From Patescibacteria group bacterium (GTDB taxonomy: Bacteria > Bacillota > UBA4882 > JAAYXC01), in the NCBI GenBank assembly GCA_050260175.1, contig JBLNBS010000053.1:9815-73814 (forward strand): a stretch of DNA of 64,000 bases, in the 5' to 3' direction. Shown one piece after another: positions 4,250 through 62,814 of this stretch (positions are counted from its first letter, which is position 1; the number at the start of each line of letters is the position of its first letter). The notes under the pieces were generated by a model. It searched no databases, was not told the DNA's origin, and saw nothing but the letters and a program-made list of their open reading frames with translations. The position numbers were made by a program, and so were the translations under genes.

Positions 4250-5560
4250 GTGCTGAATGCCATGGTCCGTTTGCTTGCCTGTCTGCTTTGCGTGCTGGCG
4301 ATCGCGGCCGCTGGGTGCGGGCCCGGGGTACCGGCCGCGGCAAGCGCGCGCGTGGAGGTGGACCTCGGCGCGATCGGGCGGGCCTTTGAACCCCGCCTGC
4401 GCGGGGTCATGGTGGGTTCATGGGAGAATCCGGCGTCGCTCTCGATCATGGCGGCGCATTGGCGCGATGCCGAGGTAACCTTTCTCGAATTCCCGGGAGG
4501 GCTGGAGGCGTCGGACGGGAGCTACGATTGGCAGGCGTCCCGGCCCTCGCAGATCGGCCCGGATCAATTCGCCGCCCTGGCAGACGCCGCCGGCGCCGCA
4601 GTGAGGATGTGCATCGCCGATTACGGCGCGAACGATCCGGCCAAAGCCGCGGCCTGGGTGGCGGCGAACCGCGAATGCGGCTGGGGTGCGGCCTACTGGG
4701 AGGTCGGCGACGAGGAATACGGCGCCTGGGCCGGCCACGCCGCTCCCGGAGAGTATGCCGCCCGTTTCCGCGCCTACCACCAGGCCATGAAAGCGGCGGA
4801 TCCCGCGATCAAGGTCGGGGCGCCGGTGACCGTCTATGATCCCTGGTGGACAAGGACCGTGTTGGCCTACATCGGCGATATCGTGGATTGGGTGGCACTC
4901 TCCTATTATCCCCAGGATCCCGGGGGGGAGAGCGACGCGGCCCTTCTCGCGGCCCCCGGCTGCCTGGGCGGGCTCATCGCCGATCTCCGCCAGTGGCTCG
5001 CCGAGGCCGCGCCCGGGCGTAAGGTGGAGATCATCATCACCGGCTGGGGCTCGGTCAGCTACAATCCCGGCCCGCAAACCCTTTCCGCAGTCAACGGGCT
5101 TTTTACGGCGGACGCCATCGGCGCCATGGCCGCGGCGGGAGTTGACGCGGCGGGGCTTTTTTGCTCGCAGATGGACGTCCTGTCCACGGGCGGCACATAC
5201 GGCCTCTTCGGCACCGGGGCGGATCCCGGCGCAGCGCGCCCGGCCTATTGGGGCCTCAAGGCTTGGGCCGGCGCCGCGGGAAACCTCGTCGCCTGCGCAA
5301 GCGACGCCCCTGAGCTTTCCTGCCGCGCCGTGGCCGGGGCGAACGGCATCCTGCTTGTGCTCATCAACCGGGATCCAGCGCGGCGCTTTACCGCCGATAT
5401 CGCGCTGGCCGGCTACGCGCCGCCGGCGGGGTGGATGACGGTTTCGCTCTACGGCCGGGACCAACCCGTTCTGGCCGAGACCGCCAGGAGGGCCCCGGCG
5501 GCGGAGTTTTGCCTGGATGTGCCTCCCCATACCCTGGCCGTGGTGCATATGCCGGGATGA
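4250..5560 (+). CDS. Lipoprotein, putative TIM-barrel glycoside-hydrolase-like enzyme; GH family uncertain. GTG at 4250 or ATG at 4262.
   Basis: Lipoprotein signal peptide (LAIAAAGCG) and a 436-aa Trp/Tyr/Gly-rich hydrolase-like body. Confidence 0.55.
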   Translation: MLNAMVRLLACLLCVLAIAAAGCGPGVPAAASARVEVDLGAIGRAFEPRLRGVMVGSWENPASLSIMAAHWRDAEVTFLEFPGGLEASDGSYDWQASRPSQIGPDQFAALADAAGAAVRMCIADYGANDPAKAAAWVAANRECGWGAAYWEVGDEEYGAWAGHAAPGEYAARFRAYHQAMKAADPAIKVGAPVTVYDPWWTRTVLAYIGDIVDWVALSYYPQDPGGESDAALLAAPGCLGGLIADLRQWLAEAAPGRKVEIIITGWGSVSYNPGPQTLSAVNGLFTADAIGAMAAAGVDAAGLFCSQMDVLSTGGTYGLFGTGADPGAARPAYWGLKAWAGAAGNLVACASDAPELSCRAVAGANGILLVLINRDPARRFTADIALAGYAPPAGWMTVSLYGRDQPVLAETARRAPAAEFCLDVPPHTLAVVHMPG

Positions 5561-7068: not shown

Positions 7069-7156
7069 GGAGGGGTGTCCGAGCGGTTTAAGGAGACGGT
7101 CTTGAAAACCGTTAGGCTGCAAGGCCTCGTGGGTTCGAATCCCACCTCCTCCGCCA
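7069..7156 (+). tRNA. tRNA-Ser, anticodon TGA (UGA); CCA encoded
   Basis: GGAGGGG acceptor stem pairs with CCTCCTCC (one G-U pair). Anticodon loop CTTGAAA. Long variable arm. T arm GGGTTCGAATCCC. 3' CCA at 7154-7156. Confidence 0.85.
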
Positions 7157-7316: not shown

Positions 7317-7408
7317 GGAGAGGTACCCAAGCCGGTCGAAGGGGACGGTTTGCTAAACCGTTAGTGGTCGTAAGGCCAGCGGGGGTTCGAATCCCCCCCT
7401 CTCCGCCA
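7317..7408 (+). tRNA. tRNA-Ser, anticodon GCT (GCU); CCA encoded
   Basis: GGAGAGG pairs perfectly with CCTCTCC. Anticodon loop TTGCTAA. Long variable arm. T arm GGGGGTTCGAATCCCCC. CCA at 7406-7408. Confidence 0.85.
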
Positions 7409-14508: not shown

Positions 14509-14547
14509 GGCCGGGGGGACGGGGTGAAGGGGTGACTAGGTGAAGGG

Positions 14548-14596
14548 GTGAGAGAACCGAGCCGGCGGCGGCCTATAGACCGCCGCTATTCTCACC
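14548..14596. terminator. Bidirectional stem-loop between the convergent DUF58 and amidohydrolase genes
   Basis: GTGAGAGAA ... GCGGCGG CCTATAGA CCGCCGC ... TTCTCAC. Three copies of GAAGGGGTGA occur within 14520-14720. Confidence 0.4.
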
Positions 14597-23833: not shown

Positions 23834-23995
23834 TCTCCACGGCGTCCCCGTCCGGGTCCAGGATGTCCTCGAGCGGCGCCCCCGCGCTGCCCGTGCAGAT
23901 CTGGTGCAGGAACCGGGCCCCTCTGGCTCCGAGGCTATTCAGCCGCTGTCTTGCTGATCCACGAGCGACGAGCGGCCAGCGACGAGCTGCGAAAT

Positions 23996-26686
23996 CTACC
24001 TCCCCACCTGCTTCCGCAGATCGGCCAGGATCTGCTGCTGGCGCCTGATGGCGTCCTGCTGCGCCCGGATGCTCTGTTCGAGCTCCTCGAGCAGGCGGAC
24101 GAGCTGATCCCGGGTCAGGCCCTCCGTGACAGCCGCCTGGCCGGGGCCAGGACCGGCCGGCGTTGCCGGCGGCGCCGCCCCGGTAAGCTGCGCCAGGGCC
24201 TCCTGCAGGTTGCTGCCGTAGGCGATACTATTCTTGTAGACGAGGACCACGAGTTTCAGCTCGGGCTGCTGGCCCTGCTCGGAGACGATGTAGACCGGCT
24301 CCACGTAGAGAAAGTCCCCGGCAAAGGGCAGGACCAGGAGATTGCCGCGGATGACCGAGGACTGCTGCTGGCCCCAGAGCGTCATGAGCTTTGAGATCTC
24401 GGGGTTCTGGGCGATCCTGCCCTCCACCTGGATGGGGCCGTAGATGATGCGGTCCTTGGGCAGGAGATAGACCAGGACCTGTCCGTAGTTCTCCCCGTCA
24501 CAACGTGCCGCCATCCAGGCGATCATGTTCTTGCGCCTGGGCGCGCTGGGCTTAAGGGGTTCCATGAGCACGAACTCGGCGTCCGCCTCGCCCGGCAGGC
24601 GCAGCATGAGGTAGTAGGGAGCGAGTTCCTCCTCCTGGCCCATGTAGGTCTCGGTGGGCACGGCCCAGGCGTCCTCTTTTTGAAAGAACGTCTTGGTGTC
24701 CCGCATGTGGTAGAGGAGGAGCATGTCGCGCTGGATGGTGAAGAGCCGCTCGGGGTAGCGCAGGTGGTCCCGGATGCTCTGCGGCATCCTGTCCCCGGGT
24801 GTGAAGAGCCTGGGGAAGACGCGCTGCCAGACCCGGATGATCGGATCTTCCCGATCGACCACGTAAAAGGTGGCCGTGCCGTCGTAGGCGTCGACCACGG
24901 CCTTGACCGAGTTCCTGACATAATTGATCCCGGTCCCCGCGTGGCGGGCCGCGTAGGGGTAGTTGGCGCTGTAGGTGTAGGCGTCGATGAGCCAATAAAG
25001 CCGTCCGTCCGCCATCACGAGGTATGGATCGGGATCGTAGTCGAGAAAGGGGGCGAGCTTGCGGACGCGGTCGGCCACGCGGCGGTAGAGCTGCACCTTG
25101 CTCTCGGGCGTGATGTATTCGGAGAGGACGAATTTGAAATCCCCAAAACGCAGGGCAAAGAGCAGACGTACCCAGAACGAGTCAAGCGGCACGCCGTCCT
25201 TGCCGGTGTAATCCGTGGTGATGTTCTGTTCCGACTCTGTGGGGTAGTCGAACTCGTGCAGGGCGTTGGGGGCGATGGTGTACTCGTTCTGGATCTCGCC
25301 GAAATAAACCTGCGGGCGGGTGACGGGGGGGAGGCCGGTGCCCGGGGCCACGCGGGGCGGGATGTCGCTGACCAGAAAGACCGGCTGCCCCTCGGGATTG
25401 ACCTCGCTGACCCCGTTCAGGACCAGCCCGTAGCCGTGCGTGTAGGCGAGATGGAGATTCTCCCAGTTCTGCGCGTTCGCCTGCAGCTGGGACGTGTCCA
25501 GTTCCCTGGCGGCGAGCATGACCTCGCGCTTTTGGCCGCCGATGACGTAGCGGTCGATGTCCATGTCGTTAAAGGTGTAATACTGGCGCAGGGCCTGCAG
25601 TTGCTCGTAGGAGAGCTGCAGGGTCCGGAAATCCCAGAGCCGCATGTTGGTGATGGTGGGACTGTCCTGGCTGAGCGCTTCGGCGGTGCGGCCGAGCGGA
25701 TAATCCCTGGTCACAAAACGGTCGAGCCCGAACGCCTTGCGCGTCATCTCGATGTGCCGGGCGAGGTACGGCTTTTCCCTGATGTACCTGTTCGGCCCCA
25801 CGACCAGGGCGTTGACCACGCCCGGGGCGATGCTCCCCAGCACAAAGGAGGAGGCCAAAAGCAGCGCGACGCCGCCCAGGAGCAGTCTGGCGCCGCGGCG
25901 GAACAGCCCCACGCCAAGGACAGCCACGCACCCCGCGGCGATCCAGGAGAGGGCGGTATAGACCGGCAGGCGGACGTGGGCCGCCGTAAAGTCCACGCCG
26001 GTCACGAGCCCCGTCTCGGCGAGGAGCAGGCCCTGCCGCGCCAGGGCGTAGTCCCAGATCTTGGCGGCAAGGAGGAGGGCCGCCAGGATGGTGAGATGGA
26101 TCTTGGCCTGCGACCGGAGGATGAAAGTCCTGCCCTGGCGCCAGAAGGCCCGGGAAGCCCAGTAAACGAAGCCCGTGCCCAGGAGGGCCATCCAGAGCAG
26201 GGTTTGCAGCAGACGGTTGAGGCTCCGCCAGATCGGGAACTGGAAGAGATAGTAACTCACGTCGCGATGCAGGATCGGGTCGGCGACGCCCATGCGGACG
26301 GGATGCAGGAACTGCTGCACCGCAGCCCAGCCCGGGTTGAGCGCCGAACCGATCAGCAGGGCGAGGAGAGCGCTGACGGCGAGATTGGCCCAGCCCCAGG
26401 GGATCCTGTCAAGTTGCAACTGGCTCCAGACGCCGCCTTGCTCCTCCGCGGGGTGCGGGCCTCTCAGTGCCCGCAGCGCCAGGCTGAAATTGAGGAAGAA
26501 GAAGGTAAAGGTTACGGCCCACGCCAGGAGCCGCAGGATCCAGCCGGTGGCGAAGGCCGTCCAGAAGACCGCGGTCAAACCCATGCTCCGGAACCAGAGC
26601 CAGTCCGTGAAGAAACTCGTCCCGGCCATCAGGAGCACGAGGACCAGCACCGCCAGTCCGACCGCGAGCCAGATTACCTTGCGCAT
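23996..26686 (-). CDS. UPF0182-family large membrane protein
   Basis: 896 aa. N-terminal multi-TM region with a TDWLWF motif, followed by a large extracytoplasmic domain. Confidence 0.8.
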   Translation of the reverse strand: MRKVIWLAVGLAVLVLVLLMAGTSFFTDWLWFRSMGLTAVFWTAFATGWILRLLAWAVTFTFFFLNFSLALRALRGPHPAEEQGGVWSQLQLDRIPWGWANLAVSALLALLIGSALNPGWAAVQQFLHPVRMGVADPILHRDVSYYLFQFPIWRSLNRLLQTLLWMALLGTGFVYWASRAFWRQGRTFILRSQAKIHLTILAALLLAAKIWDYALARQGLLLAETGLVTGVDFTAAHVRLPVYTALSWIAAGCVAVLGVGLFRRGARLLLGGVALLLASSFVLGSIAPGVVNALVVGPNRYIREKPYLARHIEMTRKAFGLDRFVTRDYPLGRTAEALSQDSPTITNMRLWDFRTLQLSYEQLQALRQYYTFNDMDIDRYVIGGQKREVMLAARELDTSQLQANAQNWENLHLAYTHGYGLVLNGVSEVNPEGQPVFLVSDIPPRVAPGTGLPPVTRPQVYFGEIQNEYTIAPNALHEFDYPTESEQNITTDYTGKDGVPLDSFWVRLLFALRFGDFKFVLSEYITPESKVQLYRRVADRVRKLAPFLDYDPDPYLVMADGRLYWLIDAYTYSANYPYAARHAGTGINYVRNSVKAVVDAYDGTATFYVVDREDPIIRVWQRVFPRLFTPGDRMPQSIRDHLRYPERLFTIQRDMLLLYHMRDTKTFFQKEDAWAVPTETYMGQEEELAPYYLMLRLPGEADAEFVLMEPLKPSAPRRKNMIAWMAARCDGENYGQVLVYLLPKDRIIYGPIQVEGRIAQNPEISKLMTLWGQQQSSVIRGNLLVLPFAGDFLYVEPVYIVSEQGQQPELKLVVLVYKNSIAYGSNLQEALAQLTGAAPPATPAGPGPGQAAVTEGLTRDQLVRLLEELEQSIRAQQDAIRRQQQILADLRKQVGR

Positions 26687-29554: not shown

Positions 29555-29918
29555 CTCCTATCCCAGATGTTTCTTTCCAGAGCATAACACAGCTCCCCGC
29601 CCCGGGCAAGGAGGCGCGAGGGGAGGCTTCGTTCCGCCCCGACCCGGCCGGGATAAAGACGGGGAAAATGGAATATGGTGTATCGTTCCACATTCAACAA
29701 CGACGAGGATTTACTCGGTTTTCATCTAGAACGGTACGAATTTGATCGCTGGCAGGCAGGATTATTGCCGGGGCCGGAGAACAAGATAGATGCTTTGATT
29801 GCGCCGCTACACCAGGATCCTGCATGTCCGCGTCATCAGGTGGAACGTTTTGGGACCGGGAAGGCTGCCGATCCCACCGGCATGGAATCCCTGCACCCGA
29901 TGCATCGAGGAAAGAGGT

Positions 29919-30962
29919 ATGAGCGTGGGCCGCATCACCATCCGCGAGATCGCCAAATCCGCCAATGTCTCGCCTTCCACGGTCTCCAACGTGATCAACA
30001 ACAACGAGAGACACGTCAGCCCCAAAACAGCCGAGCGCGTCCGCAGGCTCATCGAGGAGTCCGGCTTTACCCCGGATACCGTCGGGCGGAGCCTGCGGCG
30101 GCGCAGCACGGATTCGATCGGCGTGATCATCCTCAACGTTTCCGCCGGCCAGATCGCGGAACCCTGGATCGCGGTGCTCCTGTCGGGCATCTCCTCGGTG
30201 ATGAGCGCCTGCGGCAAGACCATCGTGGTGGACCTCTGGCAGACTGGAGCCGACGATCGCCAGCGATATCAGCGCATCTTTCATGGGAATCTCTTTGACG
30301 GGGCCATCCTGATTGGACCCAAGCGGAATGAGTGGATCCTTTCCGAGTTGGTCAGGGAGGGTTATCCCTTCGTGGCCATGGAATGGTCCGCGCCCGGTTA
30401 TAGTGTGAACAGCGTCTGCGCCAACGACTTCAACGGAGCATATATGGCCGTTACCCACCTCATCGAACGGGGGCACCGGCGCATAGGCATGATCAACGGC
30501 GACACCGGTTTCTTCTCAGCCGTGGAAAGACTCAACGGCTACAACCGGGCCCTGGCCGATCACGGCTTGGCCGCCCCCCCTGAACTGGCGGTCGTCGGCG
30601 AGTTTTCGGAGAGCGACGGATTCAAGCACGCCGTGGCCTTGATGGCCAAGAGCGATCCCCCGACCGCCATCTTTGCCGGGGATGACCTGCTGGCGATCGG
30701 CGCGATCAACGGCCTGCGCCACGCGGGCCTGGAAATACCGCGCGATGTCTCGGTGGTCGGTTTCGACGATATTCCCATGGCCAGGTACCTGACGCCGCCC
30801 CTGACCACCGTCAGGCTGCCCATGTGGGACATGGGCGTGGCCGCGGCCGAGCAGTTGCAGCGGATCCTCGCGCCGGGCAAGCGCCAGGCCCGGCAGATCA
30901 TCTTCGACGTGGAGTTGCTCGTGCGGGGTTCCACGGCTCAGGCGCCGGCCGGAAAGGCTTGA
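29919..30962 (+). CDS. LacI-family transcriptional regulator
   Basis: HTH ITIREIAKSANVSPSTVSNVIN and a periplasmic-binding-protein-like sugar-binding domain. Start ATG 29919 with RBS. Confidence 0.85.
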   Translation: MSVGRITIREIAKSANVSPSTVSNVINNNERHVSPKTAERVRRLIEESGFTPDTVGRSLRRRSTDSIGVIILNVSAGQIAEPWIAVLLSGISSVMSACGKTIVVDLWQTGADDRQRYQRIFHGNLFDGAILIGPKRNEWILSELVREGYPFVAMEWSAPGYSVNSVCANDFNGAYMAVTHLIERGHRRIGMINGDTGFFSAVERLNGYNRALADHGLAAPPELAVVGEFSESDGFKHAVALMAKSDPPTAIFAGDDLLAIGAINGLRHAGLEIPRDVSVVGFDDIPMARYLTPPLTTVRLPMWDMGVAAAEQLQRILAPGKRQARQIIFDVELLVRGSTAQAPAGKA

Positions 30963-31084
30963 CGATCCGCGCGTGCTGACGGCCATCCTGGCTGCCGCCG
31001 CGACGGGCGTGGCGGCCGGACCCAGTGCCGCGATGGCCGCGAACCGGGTAAAGGCATATATTCTCGCACTCCCGGCTGGGGGGG

Positions 31085-32014
31085 ATGGGCGTGGGCAAGG
31101 CCTTAATGGCTGGCTTGACACCGGCCCGGCGGCGCCGGAGAGGCCTCAATCGCACCGAACTCAGGTGGATCTTGCTCTTCATTGGCCCGACGGCGGCCGG
31201 CCTCATCCTCGGCTCGCTGGGTCCTGTCGTGGCCTCGCTTTGCATTAGTTTTACAAAATGGGATGTGATCGTGCCCGCGATCTACGTCGGCGGCAGGAAC
31301 TACGTCGAGCTGTTTCGCGATCCCCTCTTTACCAGGAGCATGCTCAACACCGTCTATTACACGGCGGTTTCCGTACCCGTGGGCACTTTTGCCTCGCTTC
31401 TCATCGCCCTGGCCATGAACCAAAAGGTCAAGGGCATCCTCGCCTACCGCACCGCTTTCTTCGCTCCCGTGGTCACCTCGGTGACCGCCATCGCCTTGGT
31501 CTGGTCCTGGATCTACAGCCCCGACTTCGGCCTCCTCAATTACGTCCTGGGCTGGTTCGGGGTCAGGGGGCCTGACTGGCTGTCCAGCACCGTCTGGGCC
31601 ATGCCGGCGGTCATCATCACCAGCATTTGGTGGGGCCTGGGCTACGACATGGTGATCTTCCTCGCGGGGCTGCAGGGCATCCCCGACATCTACTACGAGG
31701 CGGCCAAGATAGACGGAGCCGGAGCTTTCAGGCAGTTCACCCACGTGACCCTGCCTCTCATCACGCCCAGCATCTTCTTTGTCCTCGTCATGTCCCTCAT
31801 CGGCTCGCTGCAGGTCTTCGAGCAAACCTACATCATGACCAAGGGCGGCCCCGCCTACGCCACCACCACCATCTTCTACTACCTCTACCTTAACGGCTTC
31901 AAGTACTTTAAGATGGGCTACGCCTCGGCCATGTCCTACATCCTGTTCATCCTCATCTTCGTTTTGACCTGGATCTCCTTCAAGCTGCAGGATCGCTGGG
32001 TCGTCTACCAATGA
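31085..32014 (+). CDS. Sugar ABC transporter permease (MalF/UgpA-like). Start ATG 31085 or 31106.
   Basis: Six TM helices and the EAAKIDGAGAFRQFTHVTLPL EAA loop. Confidence 0.85.
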   Translation: MGVGKALMAGLTPARRRRRGLNRTELRWILLFIGPTAAGLILGSLGPVVASLCISFTKWDVIVPAIYVGGRNYVELFRDPLFTRSMLNTVYYTAVSVPVGTFASLLIALAMNQKVKGILAYRTAFFAPVVTSVTAIALVWSWIYSPDFGLLNYVLGWFGVRGPDWLSSTVWAMPAVIITSIWWGLGYDMVIFLAGLQGIPDIYYEAAKIDGAGAFRQFTHVTLPLITPSIFFVLVMSLIGSLQVFEQTYIMTKGGPAYATTTIFYYLYLNGFKYFKMGYASAMSYILFILIFVLTWISFKLQDRWVVYQ

Positions 32015-32026
32015 GGGGGTGATCCG

Positions 32027-32899
32027 ATGGGGATTCTACCATATGCGGCAGTGTCAAGGCGCGAACGACGCGATCGGGCGCGGCCGGCGCGGATCGTAAT
32101 CACCCATCTCGCCTTGGCCGCCGGGGCTTTCGTCATGATCGTGCCGTTTCTCTGGATGGCCTCCACCTCGCTCAAATCGCCGGACGAGGTCTTCGCCTTC
32201 CCGCCGGTCTGGATTCCGCGCCGGCTCATGTGGAGGAACTTCGCCGAGATGTGGAACGCCCTGCCGTTCGGCTTGTTCTTTTTGAACAGCACGAAACTGG
32301 CCGTGCTCAACACCGCGGGCACGCTCCTTAGTTGCTCCATGGCGGCGTTCGGCTTTTCCGTGCTGCGTTTCCGGGGGCGCAACGCGCTTTTCTTGATCCT
32401 GCTGGCCACCATGATGATCCCCTATCCCGTGGTCATGATCCCCACCTTCATCCTCTTCAAGTACATGCGCATGATCGACACGCATTACCCGCTCTGGCTC
32501 TTCAGCTTCCTCGGCGGCGCCTACGGGACCTTTCTCCTGCGGCAGTTCTTTCTCACCATCCCTCACGAACTTGTGGAAAGCGCCCGCATCGACGGGGCAA
32601 ACCCATGGCAGATCTACGCCCGTATCTTCCTGCCCTTGTCAGGACCCGCCCTGGCCACCCTGGGTATCTTCACCTTCATGAGCAGCTGGAACAACCTGCT
32701 CGGCCCCCTGATCTACCTGAACACCCTGGAAAAACTCACGCTCACCACGGGTCTGAGTTTCTTCCAATTCCAGTATACCGGGCGCTGGACGCTGATGATG
32801 GCCGGCGCCATGGTGAGCATCGTCCCGATCCTGGCGGTTTATGTCTTTGCCCAGCGTTACTTCATCAAGGGGATTGCCCTGACCGGCATCAAGGCATAA
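32027..32899 (+). CDS. Sugar ABC transporter permease (MalG/UgpE-like)
   Basis: EAA motif ESARIDGANPWQIYARIFLPL. RBS GAGGGGGTGA. Confidence 0.85.
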   Translation: MGILPYAAVSRRERRDRARPARIVITHLALAAGAFVMIVPFLWMASTSLKSPDEVFAFPPVWIPRRLMWRNFAEMWNALPFGLFFLNSTKLAVLNTAGTLLSCSMAAFGFSVLRFRGRNALFLILLATMMIPYPVVMIPTFILFKYMRMIDTHYPLWLFSFLGGAYGTFLLRQFFLTIPHELVESARIDGANPWQIYARIFLPLSGPALATLGIFTFMSSWNNLLGPLIYLNTLEKLTLTTGLSFFQFQYTGRWTLMMAGAMVSIVPILAVYVFAQRYFIKGIALTGIKA

Positions 32900-32985
32900 G
32901 CCGGACGGCTTTTTGGGGGGAGGTGGTTCGCCTCGCCGCTTTGGCCTGCGAATCCTGAACGAAAAACTTCAAAGGGGGTAGGAAC

Positions 32986-34239
32986 GTGAAGCGGTACCTG
33001 ATTCCAGGTTTGCTACTCCTGGCCCTGGCCGTCAGCGCCGTCTCGGTCCTGGGCGCCAAGGCCAACCTGAATTTCATGATGTGGGGCAGCCCGGATGAAC
33101 TCAAAGTCTACAAGCAGATCGTCGCCTCCTTCGAAAAGGCAAACAAGGACGTAAAGGTCAAGGTGACGGTGGTGGACTGGGATACCTACTGGAGCAAGCT
33201 CCAGGCCCAACTGGCCGGGGGCAATCCGCCGGATGTCTTCGCCATGGATGCGCCGCTCTACCCCGACTATTACTCCCGCGGCGTCCTGCTCAATCTTTCC
33301 CCGTTCATCGACAAGGAAAAGGGATTCCTGAGCGACTTCTATCCCGTCACGCTTTTGGCGTACAAGAAACCCGACGGGTATTTCGGCCTGCCCCGCGACT
33401 TCCAGACCATCGTCCTCTATTACAATAAGGATCGCTTCAAGGCGGCCGGGCTCAAGGAACCCGACGGGACCTGGACCTGGGAGACCTTCCGGCAGGCCTT
33501 GAAGAAACTCACCGTCGACGCCAACAAGGACGGCAAGCCGGAAAAATGGGGTGCCTGGCTGGACACCAGCGACATGGAGCTCATCTGGTCCTCGCTCGTC
33601 TGGCAAAACGGCGGTGAGATCCTCAACAAGGACTATACCAAATGCCTGCTTGACCAGGCTCCGGCCGTTGAGGCGCTGCAGTTCCTGGCGGATCTGATCT
33701 GGAAGGACAGGGTCATACCGGACGCCGGCCGCGTCTCCCAGTACGGCGACTCTTTCAAATCCGGCATCTCGGCCATGACCACCACGGGGCACTGGATGGT
33801 GCCGGAATACTCGCAGATCACGTCCTTTGCGTGGGACGTGGCGCCCCTGCCCAAGGGCAAGAACCGCGCCACGTCCGTCAACTGCGCGGGGCTCGTCATC
33901 GCCAAGGCCAGCAAGATCAAGGACGCATCCTGGCGATTCGTCAAGTACGTCTGCGGACCCGTGGGCCAGACCGAACTGACCAAGCTCGGTTTCGCCTGTC
34001 CGGTCCTGAAAAAGATCGCCAATAGCGACGTCTACCTAAAGCAGGCGACTCCGATCGCGCACGAGATCTTTATCGACGCTCTCCGATACGCCCACATCAA
34101 ACCCAGTTTCGAGGGTTTCGACCAGTTCAACACGACCCTCAATCAGGGCCTGGATCTGATCTGGTTGAACAAGAAGACGGCCCAGGCCGAGCTTGCGGTC
34201 CTCGTCCCCGAACTGAACAAGCTGCTCGCGGGCAAATAA
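32986..34239 (+). CDS. Extracellular solute-binding protein (family 1, sugar). Cleavable signal peptide without a lipobox cysteine.
   Basis: GTG start with AAGGGGGTAGG. MKRYLIPGLLLLALAVSAVSVLGAKA. Confidence 0.85.
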   Translation: MKRYLIPGLLLLALAVSAVSVLGAKANLNFMMWGSPDELKVYKQIVASFEKANKDVKVKVTVVDWDTYWSKLQAQLAGGNPPDVFAMDAPLYPDYYSRGVLLNLSPFIDKEKGFLSDFYPVTLLAYKKPDGYFGLPRDFQTIVLYYNKDRFKAAGLKEPDGTWTWETFRQALKKLTVDANKDGKPEKWGAWLDTSDMELIWSSLVWQNGGEILNKDYTKCLLDQAPAVEALQFLADLIWKDRVIPDAGRVSQYGDSFKSGISAMTTTGHWMVPEYSQITSFAWDVAPLPKGKNRATSVNCAGLVIAKASKIKDASWRFVKYVCGPVGQTELTKLGFACPVLKKIANSDVYLKQATPIAHEIFIDALRYAHIKPSFEGFDQFNTTLNQGLDLIWLNKKTAQAELAVLVPELNKLLAGK

Positions 34240-34329
34240 CCCGGTCTTTCGCCGGCGGAACCGCGGCGTTCGGCCGCGGTTCCGCTCTCTCATAACACGG
34301 GTGCCCGCGGCTCAAGGGAGGATTGGCTG

Positions 34330-35658
34330 ATGGCAAGGATCGTTTTCATCGGCGCCGGCAGCCTCGGCTTTACCAGAGGTTTGGTGCGCGATATCCTGAC
34401 CTTTCCCCTCCTGCGTGACTCCACGCTGATCCTGATGGACATCGACGCCGAACGGCTGGAGTTCGCCAGGAAGGCCGTGGAGCGCATCGTGGACATGGGA
34501 GGTTACCCGGCGAAAGTGGCGGCCACCATGGACCGGACGGAAGCCCTGCGGGGAGCGGACGCGGTCCTGTGCACGATTCTTGCGGGCGGAATCGGCGTCT
34601 GGCGCCACGACATCGAGATCCCCAAGCGCTACGGCGTGGACATCAATGTCGGCGACACCAGGGGCCCCTCGGGTATCTTCCGCGCCCTGCGCACCATCCC
34701 GGTCATGCTCGACATCTGCCGCGACATGGAGCGCCATTGCCCCGAGGCCTTCCTCCTCAACTACACCAACCCCATGGCCATGATCTGCCGGGCCATACAG
34801 AGGGAAACCTCCGTACGCGTGACCGGCCTCTGCCACAGTGTCCAGGGGACCGCCGAAATGCTGGCCGGCTGGATCGGAGCGCCCATGGAGGAGATCACCT
34901 ATACCTGCGCGGGCATCAATCATCAGGCCTGGTATCTTAGGTACGAATGGCAGGGGAAAGACGCTTATCCCTTGATCCGCAAGGCCGTCATGGAAAACCA
35001 GGATATATACAGGCAGGAGATCGTGCGCAATGAAATGTTCCTGCACCTCGACTACTATGTGACCGAGTCCAGCGGGCATAACTCCGAGTATAACCCCTGG
35101 TTCCGCAAGCGGCCCGATCTGATCGAAAAATACTGCACCCGCGGCACCGGTTGGAATCCCGGCGCATACGCCCACATCCTTAAGGAATATGAAAAAACCG
35201 AGCATACCTGGCGTGACGAGGCGAAGGAATGGTTCGCCGGGGAAGCCGCGCTCCCGCTCGCGCGCGGGCGCGAATACGCGGCATACATCATCAACGCCCT
35301 GCAGGGTGGAGAACCTTATGAATTCAACGGCAACGTCCCCAATGACGGCCTCATCACTAATCTGCCGCGGGACGCCTGCGTGGAGGTGCCGGTCTTTGCC
35401 AACCGCAAGGGCTTCAACGCAGTGCATGTCGGTGCTCTGCCGCCGCAATGCGCCGCTCTGACCAGCCTCAACGCATCCATCGAGGAGATGGCCGTGGAGG
35501 CGGCCATAGCCGGCAATCCGCGCCTCGTTTTCCAGGCAATCGCCAATGACCCGCTCACAGCCGCCGTTCTCAGCTTGGCCGAGATCAAGGAGATGGTCCA
35601 GACCATGCTGGACCAGAATCGCGACCACCTCCCGCAGTTCAAACACCTGAAAATTTAG
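34330..35658 (+). CDS. Glycoside hydrolase family 4 (NAD+/Mn2+-dependent alpha-glucosidase or alpha-galactosidase)
   Basis: [14 protein letters not shown] Rossmann N-terminus and the GH4 core (CHSVQG, NHQAW). Confidence 0.9.
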
Positions 35659-44355: not shown

Positions 44356-45162
44356 ATGCCGATCAAGCTCCTCCTCGTGGATCTCGACGACACTCTGTTA
44401 GGCGGGGATCAGACGATCTCGCCCGCCAACCGCGAGGCCCTGCTGCTCGCGGCCGGGCGGGGGGTAATGGTCGCCCTCGCCACGGGCCGCATGTACCAAT
44501 CCGCGCGGCCGTATGCCGAGGAACTTGCGCTCACGCTCCCCGTGATCGCGTACAACGGCGCCCTAGCGCGGCCGCTGTCCGGCCCGCCACTCTGGCATCA
44601 GCCCCTGGCCAACGGCGTTGCCCGGGCACTCCTCGCCCGCCTGGCCCGGTACGACGTGACGGTCAACCTCTACCTCGAGGACGAGCTGTACGTGGCCCGT
44701 CTGGATGAGCGCGCCGCCGCGTACGCCGCCAACACCCGCGTGCGCGCGATCCCCGTCGGCGATCTCGGGGCGTTCCTGGGGAGGCGGCGGCCCACCAAGC
44801 TCCTGGCGATCGGCAGGCCCGAGACCGTAACGGCGCTCCGCCTCCGGCTCGGGGAGGAGTTCCGCGGGCGGGCGGAGATCGTTCCCTCCAAGCCCGCCTA
44901 CCTCGAGATCATGGCGCCCGGCGTCACCAAGGGGGCCGCTTTGGCCCGGCTCGCTTCCGGGCTCGGCATCGCCCGCGACGAAACCATGGCCGTGGGCGAC
45001 GGCCCGAACGACCTCGGAATGCTGGCCTGGGCCGGGATTGGGGTGGCGGTGGGCAATGCCGCCCCCGAGGTCCTGGCGGCCGCGGCGCGCGTGGTGGCGC
45101 CGAGCGGCCGCGACGGCGTGGCGGAGGCGGTCAGGAGGTTCATCCTGGAGGATAGAGGTTAG
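44356..45162 (+). CDS. Cof-type HAD-IIB phosphatase
   Basis: LLLVDLDDTLL motif I and C-terminal GDGPNDLGML. Confidence 0.85.
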   Translation: MPIKLLLVDLDDTLLGGDQTISPANREALLLAAGRGVMVALATGRMYQSARPYAEELALTLPVIAYNGALARPLSGPPLWHQPLANGVARALLARLARYDVTVNLYLEDELYVARLDERAAAYAANTRVRAIPVGDLGAFLGRRRPTKLLAIGRPETVTALRLRLGEEFRGRAEIVPSKPAYLEIMAPGVTKGAALARLASGLGIARDETMAVGDGPNDLGMLAWAGIGVAVGNAAPEVLAAAARVVAPSGRDGVAEAVRRFILEDRG

Positions 45163-45315
45163 AAGTTGGAGGTTGGAAGTTAGAAGAACCCATCCATGGA
45201 TGGAACCGATCCATCCAATCCCAGGGCCATGCATGGTCTTTCGTGAGATTAGCGGCGTCCTTTAGGGCGTCGTTGGCTATCCTCCAACCTCCATCTTCCA
45301 ACCTCTCAAACCCCT
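45146..45315. repeat. Palindromic repeat array: purine-rich GAGGTTrGAAGTT units, a central CCATCCATGGATGG palindrome, then the complementary pyrimidine-rich units
   Basis: The left arm overlaps the stop codon of the HAD gene. The right arm carries TCCAACCTCCA and CTTCCAACCTC. Confidence 0.5.
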
Positions 45316-45650
45316 TCCTCCCCTCCCACTATGTACAAACCCGTGTTTAGCAGGACTTTAGCTCGGGGGCGCGAACTATGCTGGCGTAACAAAGCGAGGA
45401 GCAAGCCGCTCCTCTCGCAGCGCTCGACCGCCTGCCAAGGCTCCGGTCACTGAGCCATGACGGGCTTGTATGCAGGGACGGGGAGAGAAAGGAGGTGAAT
45501 CCGGAAGATTTTTGCGTGCTTCCCAAGAGGAGGCGGATCCCGCGATCCGGCGGGCCGGGAAACGTAACTTGGCGTTGTTTCGCGGACGCGGACCGCCGGG
45601 CCGGCTCCTCCAAAGGCTCAACGCACAGAGCAAGAATCCAAGGAGGAAAC

Positions 45651-46643
45651 ATGTTGATGAAGAAGCACATCATCGCAGCAATGGTCGGCGTGATGATCCT
45701 GGCCGTGACGGCTCCGGCCTTCGCGGCGGCCAACGTCGGCGGCACCCTGAACTTCGGCTACTCCTACGACACGCCCAGCGTGTACGAGAACGCTTCCAGC
45801 GGTTGGGGCGTGAACCTGAACGGCAACGTCAGCGACGACGTCTCCTTCCGGCTCGGTTTCGAGCAGGATCCGGCGGCCGATGACGGTTACCTGCCGCCCG
45901 TTAAAACGAATGCCATGCCCGACCTGAGCGAGGCCTGGATCCAGGCCAAGAACACCCCGGTCGGCACCGTGAAGCTCGGCGCCTTCGACATGGCTTTCGG
46001 CGAGAGCAACGGCATCTACTGGGAAGGATTCAACAACGGCGACGAGGATCGCCCGATCAACGTCCAGATCGACAACGAGCTCGCGGGGATCAAACTCTCC
46101 GGCGGCATGCAGATGGAGAACGTGAGCGAGATCGCTGCCGTCGGCGCCTCCGCCAGCCTCAAGCCCATGGAGGGACTTGACGCCACGGTCGGCGTGGCGG
46201 CCGAGCGCGCGGCCGGATGGGATCCCGCCGTCGGCTACAGCGCGACCTATACCGGCATCGAGAACCTGGCCCTCGGCCTCAAGGGCAACCTGGCCTACGA
46301 CGAGATCGTCGGCAGCGCCGAGTACGAGATCATGCCCGGCATCAAGGTGAACGGCATGTACGGCCAGAACTACTGGGACGTTGACGACCTCGCGGTCGGC
46401 GAGATCAAGCAGGCCGGCGTCAGCGCCGCCTTTGGCAACCTGCACGGCGGCGCCTCCTACGAAATGGTGACCGATCGCGTCGAAAACGGCATCAACACTG
46501 GCGACCACACCGTCATCCGCGTGAACGGCGGCTACGACCTCGAGCTGACCAAGGGCCTCACCCTCGGTCTGAACGCCGGCTACAAGGTGGACAACGGCAA
46601 CCCCTACACCACCGTCGGCGCCACCGCCGGGATCAACTTCTAA
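45651..46643 (+). CDS. Outer-membrane beta-barrel (porin-like) protein with a C-terminal Phe
   Basis: RBS AAGGAGG. Signal peptide. Alternating hydrophobic beta-strand pattern. C-terminus ...TVGATAGINF. Confidence 0.65.
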   Translation: MLMKKHIIAAMVGVMILAVTAPAFAAANVGGTLNFGYSYDTPSVYENASSGWGVNLNGNVSDDVSFRLGFEQDPAADDGYLPPVKTNAMPDLSEAWIQAKNTPVGTVKLGAFDMAFGESNGIYWEGFNNGDEDRPINVQIDNELAGIKLSGGMQMENVSEIAAVGASASLKPMEGLDATVGVAAERAAGWDPAVGYSATYTGIENLALGLKGNLAYDEIVGSAEYEIMPGIKVNGMYGQNYWDVDDLAVGEIKQAGVSAAFGNLHGGASYEMVTDRVENGINTGDHTVIRVNGGYDLELTKGLTLGLNAGYKVDNGNPYTTVGATAGINF

Positions 46644-46832
46644 GCCACGGTTCCATGCGGGGGGCCCCCGCCCCTCGCGTACATAGGGCTCGCAGCTCGT
46701 CGTCGGTTTCTCGTCGCTTGATGGCTTCAAGACATCCGGTCTTCACAAACGAGGCACGTTTTTGCCCAAGGCGCCGGCATTGAACTCACCCGCCACTCTT
46801 GACCCGCTACCCGCGGCACATGACTCTAACCC

Positions 46833-46890
46833 CATGCCTCACGCCCTATGCTTCCACGCCTCACGCCTCATGCCTCACGCCTCCACGCCC
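46833..46890. repeat. Short tandem heptamer-like repeats (CACGCCT / CATGCCT) followed by a T-rich tract
   Basis: CCATGCCTCACGCC ... TCACGCC TCATGCC TCACGCC TCCACGCC. Confidence 0.4.
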
Positions 46891-46981
46891 CCTTTTTTGT
46901 TTTTGCAAAGAAGGAAATTACAGATTGACGTAGAAGAATAGGCTGTCGATCAATCCGGATCAAACCAAGGGAGGACGGGTT

Positions 46982-48085
<1,104 letters not shown>

Positions 48086-48237: not shown

Positions 48238-48615
48238 TTGCCGCAAGACGGAACATTGGAGCTATTAGTCCAAAATGCCTGGGTGGTCGAGACGCTCAAA
48301 GCCCTGGGGAGCGGCCACATGCTGCACCTTTCCTTTGCCCGCGACCAGGTGGAACCCGAGACCCTGGCCCTTCTTGTCTCCGGGGAACTTGGACCGGGCA
48401 CGCCGGGGGAGATCCTGACGGCAGGCCGTACCCTCAAGCGGGTGGCCGTCTTTGAGCTGCAAAAGGTGAACGACCTCAAGGGTTTCATCCGCCTGGACTT
48501 CAGGCTGCTATCCGTGACACCCTTCATCCGCGACGGTGTGCGGCATGACGGCCGCCGTTACCTCTGCTCCTACCGGCGCGAGCAGTCCGCGCCGCAGCCG
48601 CCGGAGCAGGAGTAG
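48238..48615 (+). CDS. Hypothetical protein. Start uncertain (TTG 48238 or ATG 48319).
   Basis: High GC3 and natural composition. No motif I can name. Confidence 0.35.
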   Translation: MPQDGTLELLVQNAWVVETLKALGSGHMLHLSFARDQVEPETLALLVSGELGPGTPGEILTAGRTLKRVAVFELQKVNDLKGFIRLDFRLLSVTPFIRDGVRHDGRRYLCSYRREQSAPQPPEQE

Positions 48616-60110: not shown

Positions 60111-61058
60111 ATGCGCAAGGGTGTGTTCTTTAGCCTGCTTCTTTTCGCGCTCCCGGCCCTGGCCGGCCTGTGCCTGGCAGGCCGTGCGCAGGTCCTGAGA
60201 GTCTCGTACAACCCCATGCCCCTGAATCTGCCGTCCATCATCCTGCGGCGGCGGGGTTATCTGGAGGAAGCCGCGGCAGCCCTTGGCTGGCGGGTGGAGT
60301 GGGTCTCCAACCTGCAGACCGGCCCCCTGATGTCCGAGGCCATGGCCGCCGGCGCGCTGGATATCGCCGCGGTCATGGGCGAAACGTCCGCAGTGGTGGC
60401 AAAAGCCGCAGGCAACGACCTGGTCGTCGTGGCGCCTTACAGCGTGGCTCCGGGTGCCTTTGCCCTCGTCGTGCCGGCAACCGGCGGAGCAACCGGCGCG
60501 GCGGGCCTGGCCGGGAAGAGGATCGGTCTGCCGGTGGGGACCACGGCCCATTATCTCCTGGCGCGTTTTTTGGCTACGGAGGGCCTGTCCTTGGCTAAAC
60601 TGGAAGTGGTGAACATGGCCGTGCCGGACGCGGCCGCCGCCGTCGCCGCCGGTCGGCTGGACGGGGCGGTCCTGGTCGAGCCGGTGCTCAGCAGGGTTTT
60701 GGCCGGGGGCAAGGTGCGGCTGCTCAGGGACGGCACGGGCCTGATCGGCGGTTTGACGGTGACGAGCGTGCGCGGTGAGCTGTGGCGCGGGGAGCCGGCC
60801 CTTGTCCGGGCCTTCCTTGGCGCGGTCTCCCGCGCCGGGCGCTACCTGGCGGAGCACATGGACGAGGCCGTAGACGAAGCCGCCGGGGAAACCGGCCTCC
60901 CGCCCGAACTGGTGCGCAAGATCGCGGCCAAGTACCGGTTCCTGGAGATCCCCGCCACGGAGATGCGCCGCGAGCTGGGCGCAGTCATCAGCTTTCTCGC
61001 GGAACAGAAGCTGATCGCCAGGCGGCCGGCCCTGGCCGATCTCGTGGTCGAGCCGTGA
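60111..61058 (+). CDS. ABC substrate-binding protein, NitT/TauT (SsuA/NMT1-like) family. Signal peptide without a lipobox.
   Basis: RBS GGGAGG. Signal peptide MRKGVFFSLLLFALPALAGLCLAG followed by the periplasmic-binding fold. Confidence 0.8.
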   Translation: MRKGVFFSLLLFALPALAGLCLAGRAQVLRVSYNPMPLNLPSIILRRRGYLEEAAAALGWRVEWVSNLQTGPLMSEAMAAGALDIAAVMGETSAVVAKAAGNDLVVVAPYSVAPGAFALVVPATGGATGAAGLAGKRIGLPVGTTAHYLLARFLATEGLSLAKLEVVNMAVPDAAAAVAAGRLDGAVLVEPVLSRVLAGGKVRLLRDGTGLIGGLTVTSVRGELWRGEPALVRAFLGAVSRAGRYLAEHMDEAVDEAAGETGLPPELVRKIAAKYRFLEIPATEMRRELGAVISFLAEQKLIARRPALADLVVEP

Positions 61059-61701: not shown

Positions 61702-61869
61702 CTGCCATTGACCGATCGATCGCACCGCTTGCAGTTGTTCGTATTCACCAGACTCCGGAAGGATTTTTGGGTTGCGGCAAGAATTTGGGTAGCGAGCGGT
61801 CACAGTTGATGTGGATGCTCTCTGTCCAAAGATCGCTCAAAATTTAATAATTATAAAGGAGATTATGTT

Positions 61870-62814
61870 ATGAAACGTTATTTATTCCTCATTCCCCTGA
61901 TGTTTCTCCTTTCGCTGACATTATTGGCGGCGGAATCGAATTTCGGCGTCAAAGATCCGGGTTTACTCAATTTGAAAGGCTTGATTTACTACCTGCCCGA
62001 AGAAACCTACGAGATGCCCGCCGATCTCGAGCAACAAGAGCCCCGGGGCGTCATCTACACGAAAAAACTGGATATTCCCGCCCGTGATTTCACAGAGGGA
62101 TTTCCGGGCGTCACGGATCGGTTCGAGTGGTTCGGCCTGATCTACACGGGCACGTTTGAGATCACAAAACCCGGCCTGTACCAATGGCGGCTCGAGTCCG
62201 ACGACGGCAGCCGCCTGTGGATCGATAACGAGGAGATCATCAATAACGACGGCGTCCACGACATGACCTCCGCCGATGCCGAGCAGCAACTGGGCAAGGG
62301 CCGGCACACCATCAAGGTTTGGTATTTCCAGGGACCGGCCACCGAGGTCGGCTTGCGGCTCTTTATCAAGGCGCCCGGGGAAAAGGAGAAGATCTTCTCC
62401 CTGGATGATTTCTCCGTCGGTGTCTCCGCGGCGTTGAACAGCGTCAGCGCAAAGGCGACGCGGGATGGGATCCTCGTCCAGTTGGACGCGCAACTCCTGT
62501 TCGATTCCAACAAGTTCGAGATCAAGCCCGCGGCCGCGCAGAGCATCAAGAACACGGCCGAGATCATCGCCATGTACCCGGGCTGCCTGGTCCGCATCGA
62601 GGGGCACACGGACAATATCGGAAGCGAGCAGGACAACCAAAAGCTGTCGGAGAACCGCGCCCGCGCCGTCAAGGAGGCGCTCGTCAAGGCGAATGTGCCC
62701 AGGAACACCCGCTTTGAAGTCATCGGTTACGGGGAAACCCGGCCCGTGGCGGATAATGGTACGGAAGCGGGGCGGGCCAAGAACCGGCGGGTGGAGATCC
62801 TGATCGTGCCGTGA
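61870..62814 (+). CDS. Secreted PA14-domain protein with a C-terminal OmpA-like peptidoglycan-binding domain
   Basis: RBS AAAGGAG. Signal peptide. PA14 core (YQWRLESDDGSRLWIDNEEIINNDGVH). OmpA core (RIEGHTDNIGS...NRRVEI). The 5' end is AT-rich. Confidence 0.8.
   Translation: MKRYLFLIPLMFLLSLTLLAAESNFGVKDPGLLNLKGLIYYLPEETYEMPADLEQQEPRGVIYTKKLDIPARDFTEGFPGVTDRFEWFGLIYTGTFEITKPGLYQWRLESDDGSRLWIDNEEIINNDGVHDMTSADAEQQLGKGRHTIKVWYFQGPATEVGLRLFIKAPGEKEKIFSLDDFSVGVSAALNSVSAKATRDGILVQLDAQLLFDSNKFEIKPAAAQSIKNTAEIIAMYPGCLVRIEGHTDNIGSEQDNQKLSENRARAVKEALVKANVPRNTRFEVIGYGETRPVADNGTEAGRAKNRRVEILIVP

Follow-up and report, generated by a model that had tools for sequence, protein, structure and literature searches.

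Diderm Firmicutes are the main model for the loss or retention of the outer membrane in bacteria. Their outer-membrane proteins are barely known beyond Veillonella, in which OmpM is regarded as the sole type of porin; for diderm Firmicutes as a whole, OmpM paralogues have been proposed as the sole general porins. The Limnochordia are recognized as a third diderm clade within the Firmicutes and carry outer-membrane marker genes; Taib et al. are reported to have found the Bam, Lpt, Lpx and OmpM set in each of the 46 Limnochordia genomes that they examined. Hydrogenispora and its relatives belong to the class Limnochordia in both SILVA and GTDB, and Capillibacterium, whose closest described relative is Hydrogenispora, shows, in transmission electron micrographs, an outer membrane in addition to the plasma membrane, together with a thin layer of peptidoglycan, and contains 3-OH fatty acids. 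Here we describe a gene in a 64-kb stretch of contig JBLNBS010000053.1 (64,000 nucleotides, called the window below; sample from straw-amended paddy soil). This gene, called the porin gene in the following, very probably codes for a diffusion channel in the outer membrane of a diderm Firmicute of the Hydrogenispora/OPB54 lineage, that is, Limnochordia in the sense of SILVA and GTDB. Coordinates of the features are given in Table 1.

The precursor protein, its family and its predicted fold

The open reading frame (ORF) encodes a precursor of 330 aa that starts with MLMKKHIIAAMVGVMILAVTAPAFAAANVGG and ends with GATAGINF; the NCBI version of the protein (P0001, 328 aa) starts two codons later, which leaves the mature protein unaffected. 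The GC content at the three codon positions (0.61/0.45/0.85) is in line with that of other genes in the window. The initial annotation, made from the sequence alone, had listed a signal peptide, an alternating beta-strand periodicity and a terminal Phe, and all three have been confirmed. The signal peptide is the only hydrophobic helix of the protein (KD19 maximum of 2.35 at residue 7 and model helix at residues 5-20, against a KD19 maximum of 0.73 in the mature part), and the segment APAFAAANVGG is nearly invariant across the family alignment. The mean 180-degree hydrophobic moment of the mature part has a z-score of 3.6, a value reached by three of 2000 shuffles, while the alpha-helical moment shows no rise compared with shuffles. 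Gly makes up 14.5% of the mature protein, which is free of Cys and strongly acidic (40 Asp and Glu versus 15 Lys and Arg).

F330 is invariant in family alignments of 10, 16 and 22 relatives, and hydrophobic residues alternate in the C-terminal GATAGINF. The C-terminus TVGATAGINF is an aromatic-ended beta-strand of the kind found in outer-membrane proteins assembled by the beta-barrel assembly machinery (BAM), and the combination of a cleavable Sec signal peptide with no further hydrophobic helix is likewise that of BAM clients. The textbook Gly at position -5 of the beta-signal is not conserved in this family, which has Gly at -3 and -7 instead.

Homologs of the protein are very rare: 11 were found in an index of 5.8 billion proteins, 16 at E<=1e-3 among 1.84 billion representatives, and a single locus in a search of GTDB species representatives. 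The protein itself has no match to Porin_4 (PF13609) even at E<=10, the gathering threshold being 27 bits, and none to OprD/Occ (PF03573) or LamB (PF02264) at E<=10; the Pfam search yielded no SLH domain (PF00395), and a PDB search with the family profile gave only a weak match to a designed barrel. Four relatives that are 48-52% identical to the protein (P0005, P0006, P0007 and P0012) match Porin_4 over nearly the whole model with 36-58 bits, above the threshold of 27. Furthermore, the alignment of the family profile with that of a second group, consisting of Porin_4 proteins of related genomes (five of its six members above the Pfam threshold), gave a probability of 98.7% and an E-value of 2.9e-16 over 259 columns in hhalign. 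Some members of the family are already named 'porin' by the NCBI pipeline.

A first AlphaFold (AF2) model of the protein reached a pLDDT of 65.6; a second one, built on 22 sequences, reached a pLDDT of 80.8 and a pTM of 0.70, with at least 76 for all five models. The second model is a barrel of 18 antiparallel strands, in which every second connection is a turn of 2-4 residues and the alternate ones are mostly longer loops (2-24 residues), so that the predicted topology is the usual outer-membrane type with both the N- and the C-terminus periplasmic. Strand 1 starts at residue 29, three residues past the cleavage site. Such a large antiparallel outer-membrane beta-barrel is the fold of Porin_4 proteins. 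The highest structure-match figures (19-20) were obtained for the 18-stranded OccD3 and OpdQ, Escherichia coli ChiP, OccAB and Campylobacter jejuni MOMP, followed by AlgE and maltoporin (18.6-18.7), Veillonella parvula OmpM1 (15.1) and 16-stranded general porins (13-15). Foldseek retrieved porins exclusively, with E-values down to 5e-10. The outer-membrane barrel in a Firmicute gene context that had been postulated at this locus is thus backed by the 18-stranded model, by the homology to Porin_4 and by the constancy of the locus in seven assemblies (see below).

Conservation within the family is highest in the block EAWIQAK…VKLGAFDMAFGE, which comprises strands 4 and 5 and the beginning of the 24-residue loop with a short helix. 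In this block F112, F116 and N120 are invariant, and D113 and G117 nearly so. By analogy with loop L3 of porins, the loop at residues 112-135 is probably the constriction of the pore.

Host lineage, gene order and inheritance

The UvrC protein encoded in the window is 67-75% identical to unnamed or 'Bacillota bacterium' proteins, and its best named match is from Hydrogenispora ethanolica (59%). Together with the class assignment of Hydrogenispora and the micrographs of Capillibacterium, this supports a diderm Firmicute of the Hydrogenispora/OPB54 lineage as the host, in agreement with the initial annotation, which had suggested a diderm Firmicute such as Limnochordia. Since outer membranes of this Limnochordia-type lineage have been documented by electron microscopy and genomics, the diderm-Firmicute reading as such is not new. 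At NCBI, the metagenome-assembled genomes (MAGs) of PRJNA950955 that are the source of P0001, P0002, P0004 and P0023 are labeled 'Patescibacteria group bacterium' and 'Bacteroidota bacterium'. These labels are evidently wrong, because the gene content, the GC content of ~65% and the UvrC similarity show Bacillota.

The gene order HAD or GlmM, porin, MalK/MsmX-type ATPase, small ORF, FtsE, FtsX, CtpA, PDZ protein and YibQ-like deacetylase is the same in seven independent assemblies, which excludes a chimeric contig. In one close relative, glmM is still the gene immediately before the porin gene. The Porin_4 genes of more distant relatives are situated between spoVT and a block of phosphoribosyltransferase (PRTase), cdaA, glmM and glmS genes, or adjoin a sleB-like gene. 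The fixed site spoVT (or ilv)/PRTase-cdaA-glmM-glmS is occupied by one or two Porin_4 genes in three such loci, on contigs of up to 597 kb (L006, 8710-11029; L013, 10001-12298; L015, 10001-10855); the porin gene may have resided at this site ancestrally. In L013, a gene for an RND pump (AcrB type) is found near the Porin_4 locus. The positions next to spoVT, the sleB-like gene, cdaA-glmM-glmS and glmM demonstrate vertical inheritance in a chromosomal neighborhood of sporulating Firmicutes.

These data also bear on the possibility that the gene is foreign to the envelope of its host, being recently acquired by horizontal transfer, located on a chimeric or mis-binned contig, or coding for a secreted soluble beta-rich protein of a monoderm. 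The NCBI labels 'Patescibacteria group' and 'Bacteroidota' do reveal binning or taxonomy problems, and the protein has no direct family match. However, the GC content of the gene and its GC3 (0.85) are like those of the neighboring genes, the gene order is identical in assemblies that come from different studies, and the flanks are of the Firmicute type, with UvrC nearest to Hydrogenispora and with spoVT and the sleB-like gene in wider relatives. Moreover, proteobacterial porins are only very distant relatives of the family (~10-15% identity), which has kept both the periodicity typical of barrels and the terminal Phe. We therefore regard this possibility as very improbable.

The gene immediately downstream of the porin gene in all seven close loci encodes an orphan sugar ATPase of the ATP-binding cassette (ABC) type, which is the sole MalK/MsmX-type ATPase of the window. 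A sugar ABC operon at 29799-35658, consisting of genes for a LacI regulator, two CUT1 permeases, an SBP_bac_1 protein and GH4, contains no ATPase gene. A functional operon of porin and msmX was considered and downgraded, as the two genes are no longer adjacent in wider relatives and the porin gene possesses its own leader and a hairpin past its stop codon. Between the ATPase gene and ftsE, a small ORF (48238-48615 in the window; 116-129 aa across the loci) is kept in most related loci (L001, 9649-10008; L002, 2872-3228; L010, 5662-6012; L011, 2495-2884), is absent from L003, and has no Pfam or NCBIfam match.

The neighborhood and the fold leave some room for a substrate-specific channel, for instance for oligosaccharides, which would resemble OprD/Occ, ChiP or maltoporin and feed CUT1 importers powered by MsmX. 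The best structural matches do include 18-stranded specific channels (OccD3, OpdQ, E. coli ChiP, maltoporin and ScrY), the porin gene adjoins msmX in every close locus, and the window is rich in sugar-use genes (LacI, two permeases, binding protein, GH4 and GH31), its ABC operon being without an ATPase of its own. On the side of a general porin are the homology to a general-porin family, the equally good match to MOMP, the loss of the msmX adjacency in wider relatives and the monocistronic appearance of the gene. On balance, a specific channel seems unlikely, if well worth keeping in mind, and we lean towards a general diffusion channel.

Leader, flanking repeats and other envelope-related genes

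The porin gene is preceded by a conserved noncoding leader of ~320 nt. Comparison of the window with five related loci (L001, 6560-6941; L002, 1-354; L003, 1853-2185; L009, 3130-3520 on the reverse strand; L010, 2380-2760) showed 60-69% column identity with long invariant blocks, while the encoded proteins are only ~50% identical. One additional locus was found by a metagenome scan with the leader. Rfam gave no significant match for the leader, searched in the whole window and in the porin locus (45160-46990), and the sigma-70 promoter scan gave no site for the porin gene. RNAalifold predicts a hairpin in the leader with 16 pairs kept in four to six of the six sequences, 12 of them in all six; two pairs show compensatory AU-to-GC changes, thin data given that both variant sequences are close relatives.

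Directly behind this hairpin lies AGAAAGGAGGTGA, which we take to be complementary to the 3' end of 16S rRNA. It is the only perfect 13-nt anti-Shine-Dalgarno complement in the window and is conserved in the six loci. Complementarity of this kind, far upstream and with no start codon behind it, is characteristic of STAB-SD elements, assuming that the element is located within the transcript. It resembles the STAB-SD of the Bacillus thuringiensis cry3A mRNA; in contrast to the latter, it sits after a conserved hairpin and before a gene for an outer-membrane protein. The decoy Shine-Dalgarno sequence is therefore a candidate for a STAB-SD-like mRNA stabilizer, and the analogy with cry3A suggests that the porin transcript may be stable and highly expressed. 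Two other interpretations of the leader were rejected: a small ORF from GTG 45495 contains frame-breaking indels in relatives, and long-range pairing of the decoy with a downstream CUCC is absent in L003 and L009. The GC-rich hairpin just past the stop codon could possibly be a terminator or a 3' stabilizer, a weak assignment, as the overall fold of its region is no better than that of shuffles (z of -0.5).

Short tandem arrays of period 7/8 (3.6-7.4 copies) flank the porin gene at 45146-45186, 45279-45305 and 46836-46889. The upstream pair constitutes an inverted repeat of 30 nt, with the arrays 93 nt from each other, that overlaps the end of the HAD gene. Similar intergenic arrays are present elsewhere in the window (14513-14551 and 23961-23987) and in related loci (L001, 6330-6512 and 8125-8150; L002, 1313-1470; L010, 3845-4040; L011, 2365-2390), and their repeat units differ from locus to locus. 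The arrays could be terminator-like hairpins or slippage-prone spacers.

Other genes of the window had also been invoked as evidence for a diderm envelope. The protein described as PA14 plus OmpA domain does contain both domains, with NCBIfam matches in the OmpA_C region only. It has a signal peptide of the signal peptidase I (SPase I) type, no Cys and an N-terminal PA14 part; without a barrel and without a lipobox, it is neither OmpA nor Pal. Monoderms have OmpA_C domains as well, so that these domains are not restricted to diderms. The neighbors of the gene are not tolB, as would be expected for Pal, but a 2-thiouracil desulfurase gene and a beta-lactamase-like gene, and its codon-position GC content (0.56/0.38/0.76 at 61810-62814, versus ~0.7/0.5/0.85 in neighbors) hints at horizontal acquisition. 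As to the two ABC binding proteins, which were said to have signal peptides and no lipobox cysteine, both have signal peptides and neither has a canonical lipobox; the absence of cysteine holds for the SBP_bac_1 protein and fails for the NMT1-type protein, whose Cys21 follows AGL, not a canonical lipobox because of the Leu at -1. An unannotated protein of 432 aa (4262-5560) has a canonical lipobox (IAAAG before the Cys), hence the organism makes lipoproteins, though neither of the two binding proteins is one. Genes for LemA, DUF2207, FtsE/FtsX and a YyaL-type DUF255 protein are all present in the window, as listed in the initial annotation. Two tRNA-Ser genes (7069-7156 and 7317-7408) were confirmed by ARAGORN and Rfam, whereas an ARAGORN call of tRNA-Lys on the reverse strand (24826-24905), located within the UPF0182 coding region and unconfirmed at the Rfam gathering threshold, is probably a false positive.

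Table 1. Positions of the porin gene, its signals and the other envelope-related genes in the window.
Feature	Position	Strand	Evidence or remark
Porin gene; 330-aa precursor, ~304-aa mature predicted 18-stranded outer-membrane beta-barrel	45651..46643	+	
Porin Shine-Dalgarno sequence AAGGAGG	45640..45646	+	4 nt ahead of ATG; invariant in 6 loci
Sec signal peptide, residues 1-26	45651..45728	+	Predicted SPase I site between AFA and AANVGG
24-residue loop behind strand 5 (residues 112-135) containing a short helix; candidate L3 constricting the pore	45984..46055	+	Model secondary structure
Last beta-strand (residues 317-329) and Phe330; candidate BAM beta-signal	46599..46640	+	Model strand E317-329
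GC-rich hairpin just past porin stop, 11-bp stem, no U tract	46655..46680	+	Centroid structure
Conserved noncoding leader ahead of porin gene, ~320 nt	45330..45650	+	DNA comparison of six loci
Conserved leader hairpin	45423..45487	+	RNAalifold
STAB-SD-like decoy Shine-Dalgarno AGAAAGGAGGTGA	45485..45498	+	~155 nt before porin start, no start codon behind
Orphan MalK/MsmX/UgpC-type sugar ABC ATPase	46982..48085	+	Pfam ABC_tran, OB_MalK and TOBE_2; NCBIfam UgpC/MalK
SBP_bac_1 sugar-binding protein, Cys-free signal peptide	32986..34239	+	Pfam, sequence
NMT1-type binding protein, Cys21 after AGL in the signal region	60111..61058	+	Pfam, sequence
Secreted PA14 and OmpA_C (peptidoglycan-binding) protein	61870..62814	+	Pfam PA14 1.3e-12, OmpA_C (PF00691) 1.8e-23

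Role of the protein and comparison with known systems

Several observations weigh against a porin of a diderm Firmicute or limit the case for it. The protein stays below every Pfam, NCBIfam and PDB sequence threshold, and its structure is only predicted, from a shallow alignment of 22 sequences. The lineage placement is based on one marker, UvrC, at moderate identity, and no BamA, Skp, Lpt, Lpx or OmpM gene was found among the ~50 genes scanned in the window. The OmpA-domain argument for a diderm envelope is weak, and so is the binding-protein argument, with two proteins only, one of which carries a Cys, and none of LemA, FtsEX and YyaL is specific to Firmicutes. The porin-msmX adjacency, too, is a feature of close relatives that the wider lineage does not share. 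Finally, exporters (AlgE and Wzi) are among the best fold matches beside uptake channels, which bears on direction and specificity.

The last point raises the question of an outer-membrane barrel in a non-porin role, such as AlgE-like or Wzi-like export or anchoring of polysaccharides, or a structural role as a major envelope protein. However, no polysaccharide-export genes adjoin the porin gene, the sequence homology indicates porins, and the additional domains found in Wzi and AlgE are missing from the short-looped protein. This makes a non-porin role quite improbable, and a diffusion channel is the explanation that we favor.

As such a channel, the precursor would be exported by Sec and cut after AFA26, and BAM would insert the protein via its Phe-ended C-terminal strand. 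In the resulting barrel of 18 strands, turns of 2-4 residues would face the periplasm and longer loops the outside, and the conserved loop that follows strand 5 would probably fold into the lumen. Small hydrophilic solutes could then pass by diffusion through the remaining pore to the periplasm, to be taken up via soluble binding proteins and ABC importers that may be powered by the adjacent MsmX-type ATPase. Outer-membrane location, BAM dependence and channel function are what we infer from the data presented above, and the same applies to the oligomeric state and the substrate range.

A further-reaching proposal is that the lineage uses a stand-alone, SLH-less 18-stranded porin as a major solute channel, perhaps with a STAB-SD stabilizer in the Gram-positive style on a 'Gram-negative' cargo; we put it forward tentatively, with more doubt than confidence. 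If true, the Hydrogenispora/Limnochordia branch would possess a tether-free porin passed on by vertical descent, which would widen the known porin repertoire of diderm Firmicutes. The protein is also a concrete object for study in the cultivable Hydrogenispora, Capillibacterium and Limnochorda, and its gene could serve as a cheap genomic marker that flags mislabeled MAGs of the lineage as diderm Bacillota.

With the Porin_4 family of Gram-negative porins (MBB clan), the protein shares the signal peptide, the acidic barrel without Cys and the terminal Phe. Compared with the 18-stranded channels, namely OccD3/OpdQ of the Pseudomonas aeruginosa OprD family, E. coli ChiP, C. jejuni MOMP and LamB, it has an identity of only 9-14%, and its very short outer loops make it ~100 residues shorter. 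The tether-porin OmpM1 of V. parvula (PDB 8bym) consists of an N-terminal SLH domain, a stalk and a 16-stranded barrel, whereas in the protein described here no SLH domain was detected and the barrel begins right behind the signal peptide. The protein is therefore not an OmpM and, having no SLH or other periplasmic domain, does not act as a tether between membrane and cell wall as OmpM does. This stand-alone family of Porin_4-type barrels in the Hydrogenispora/Limnochordia branch is thus a candidate exception to the proposal that OmpM proteins are the only general porins of diderm Firmicutes.
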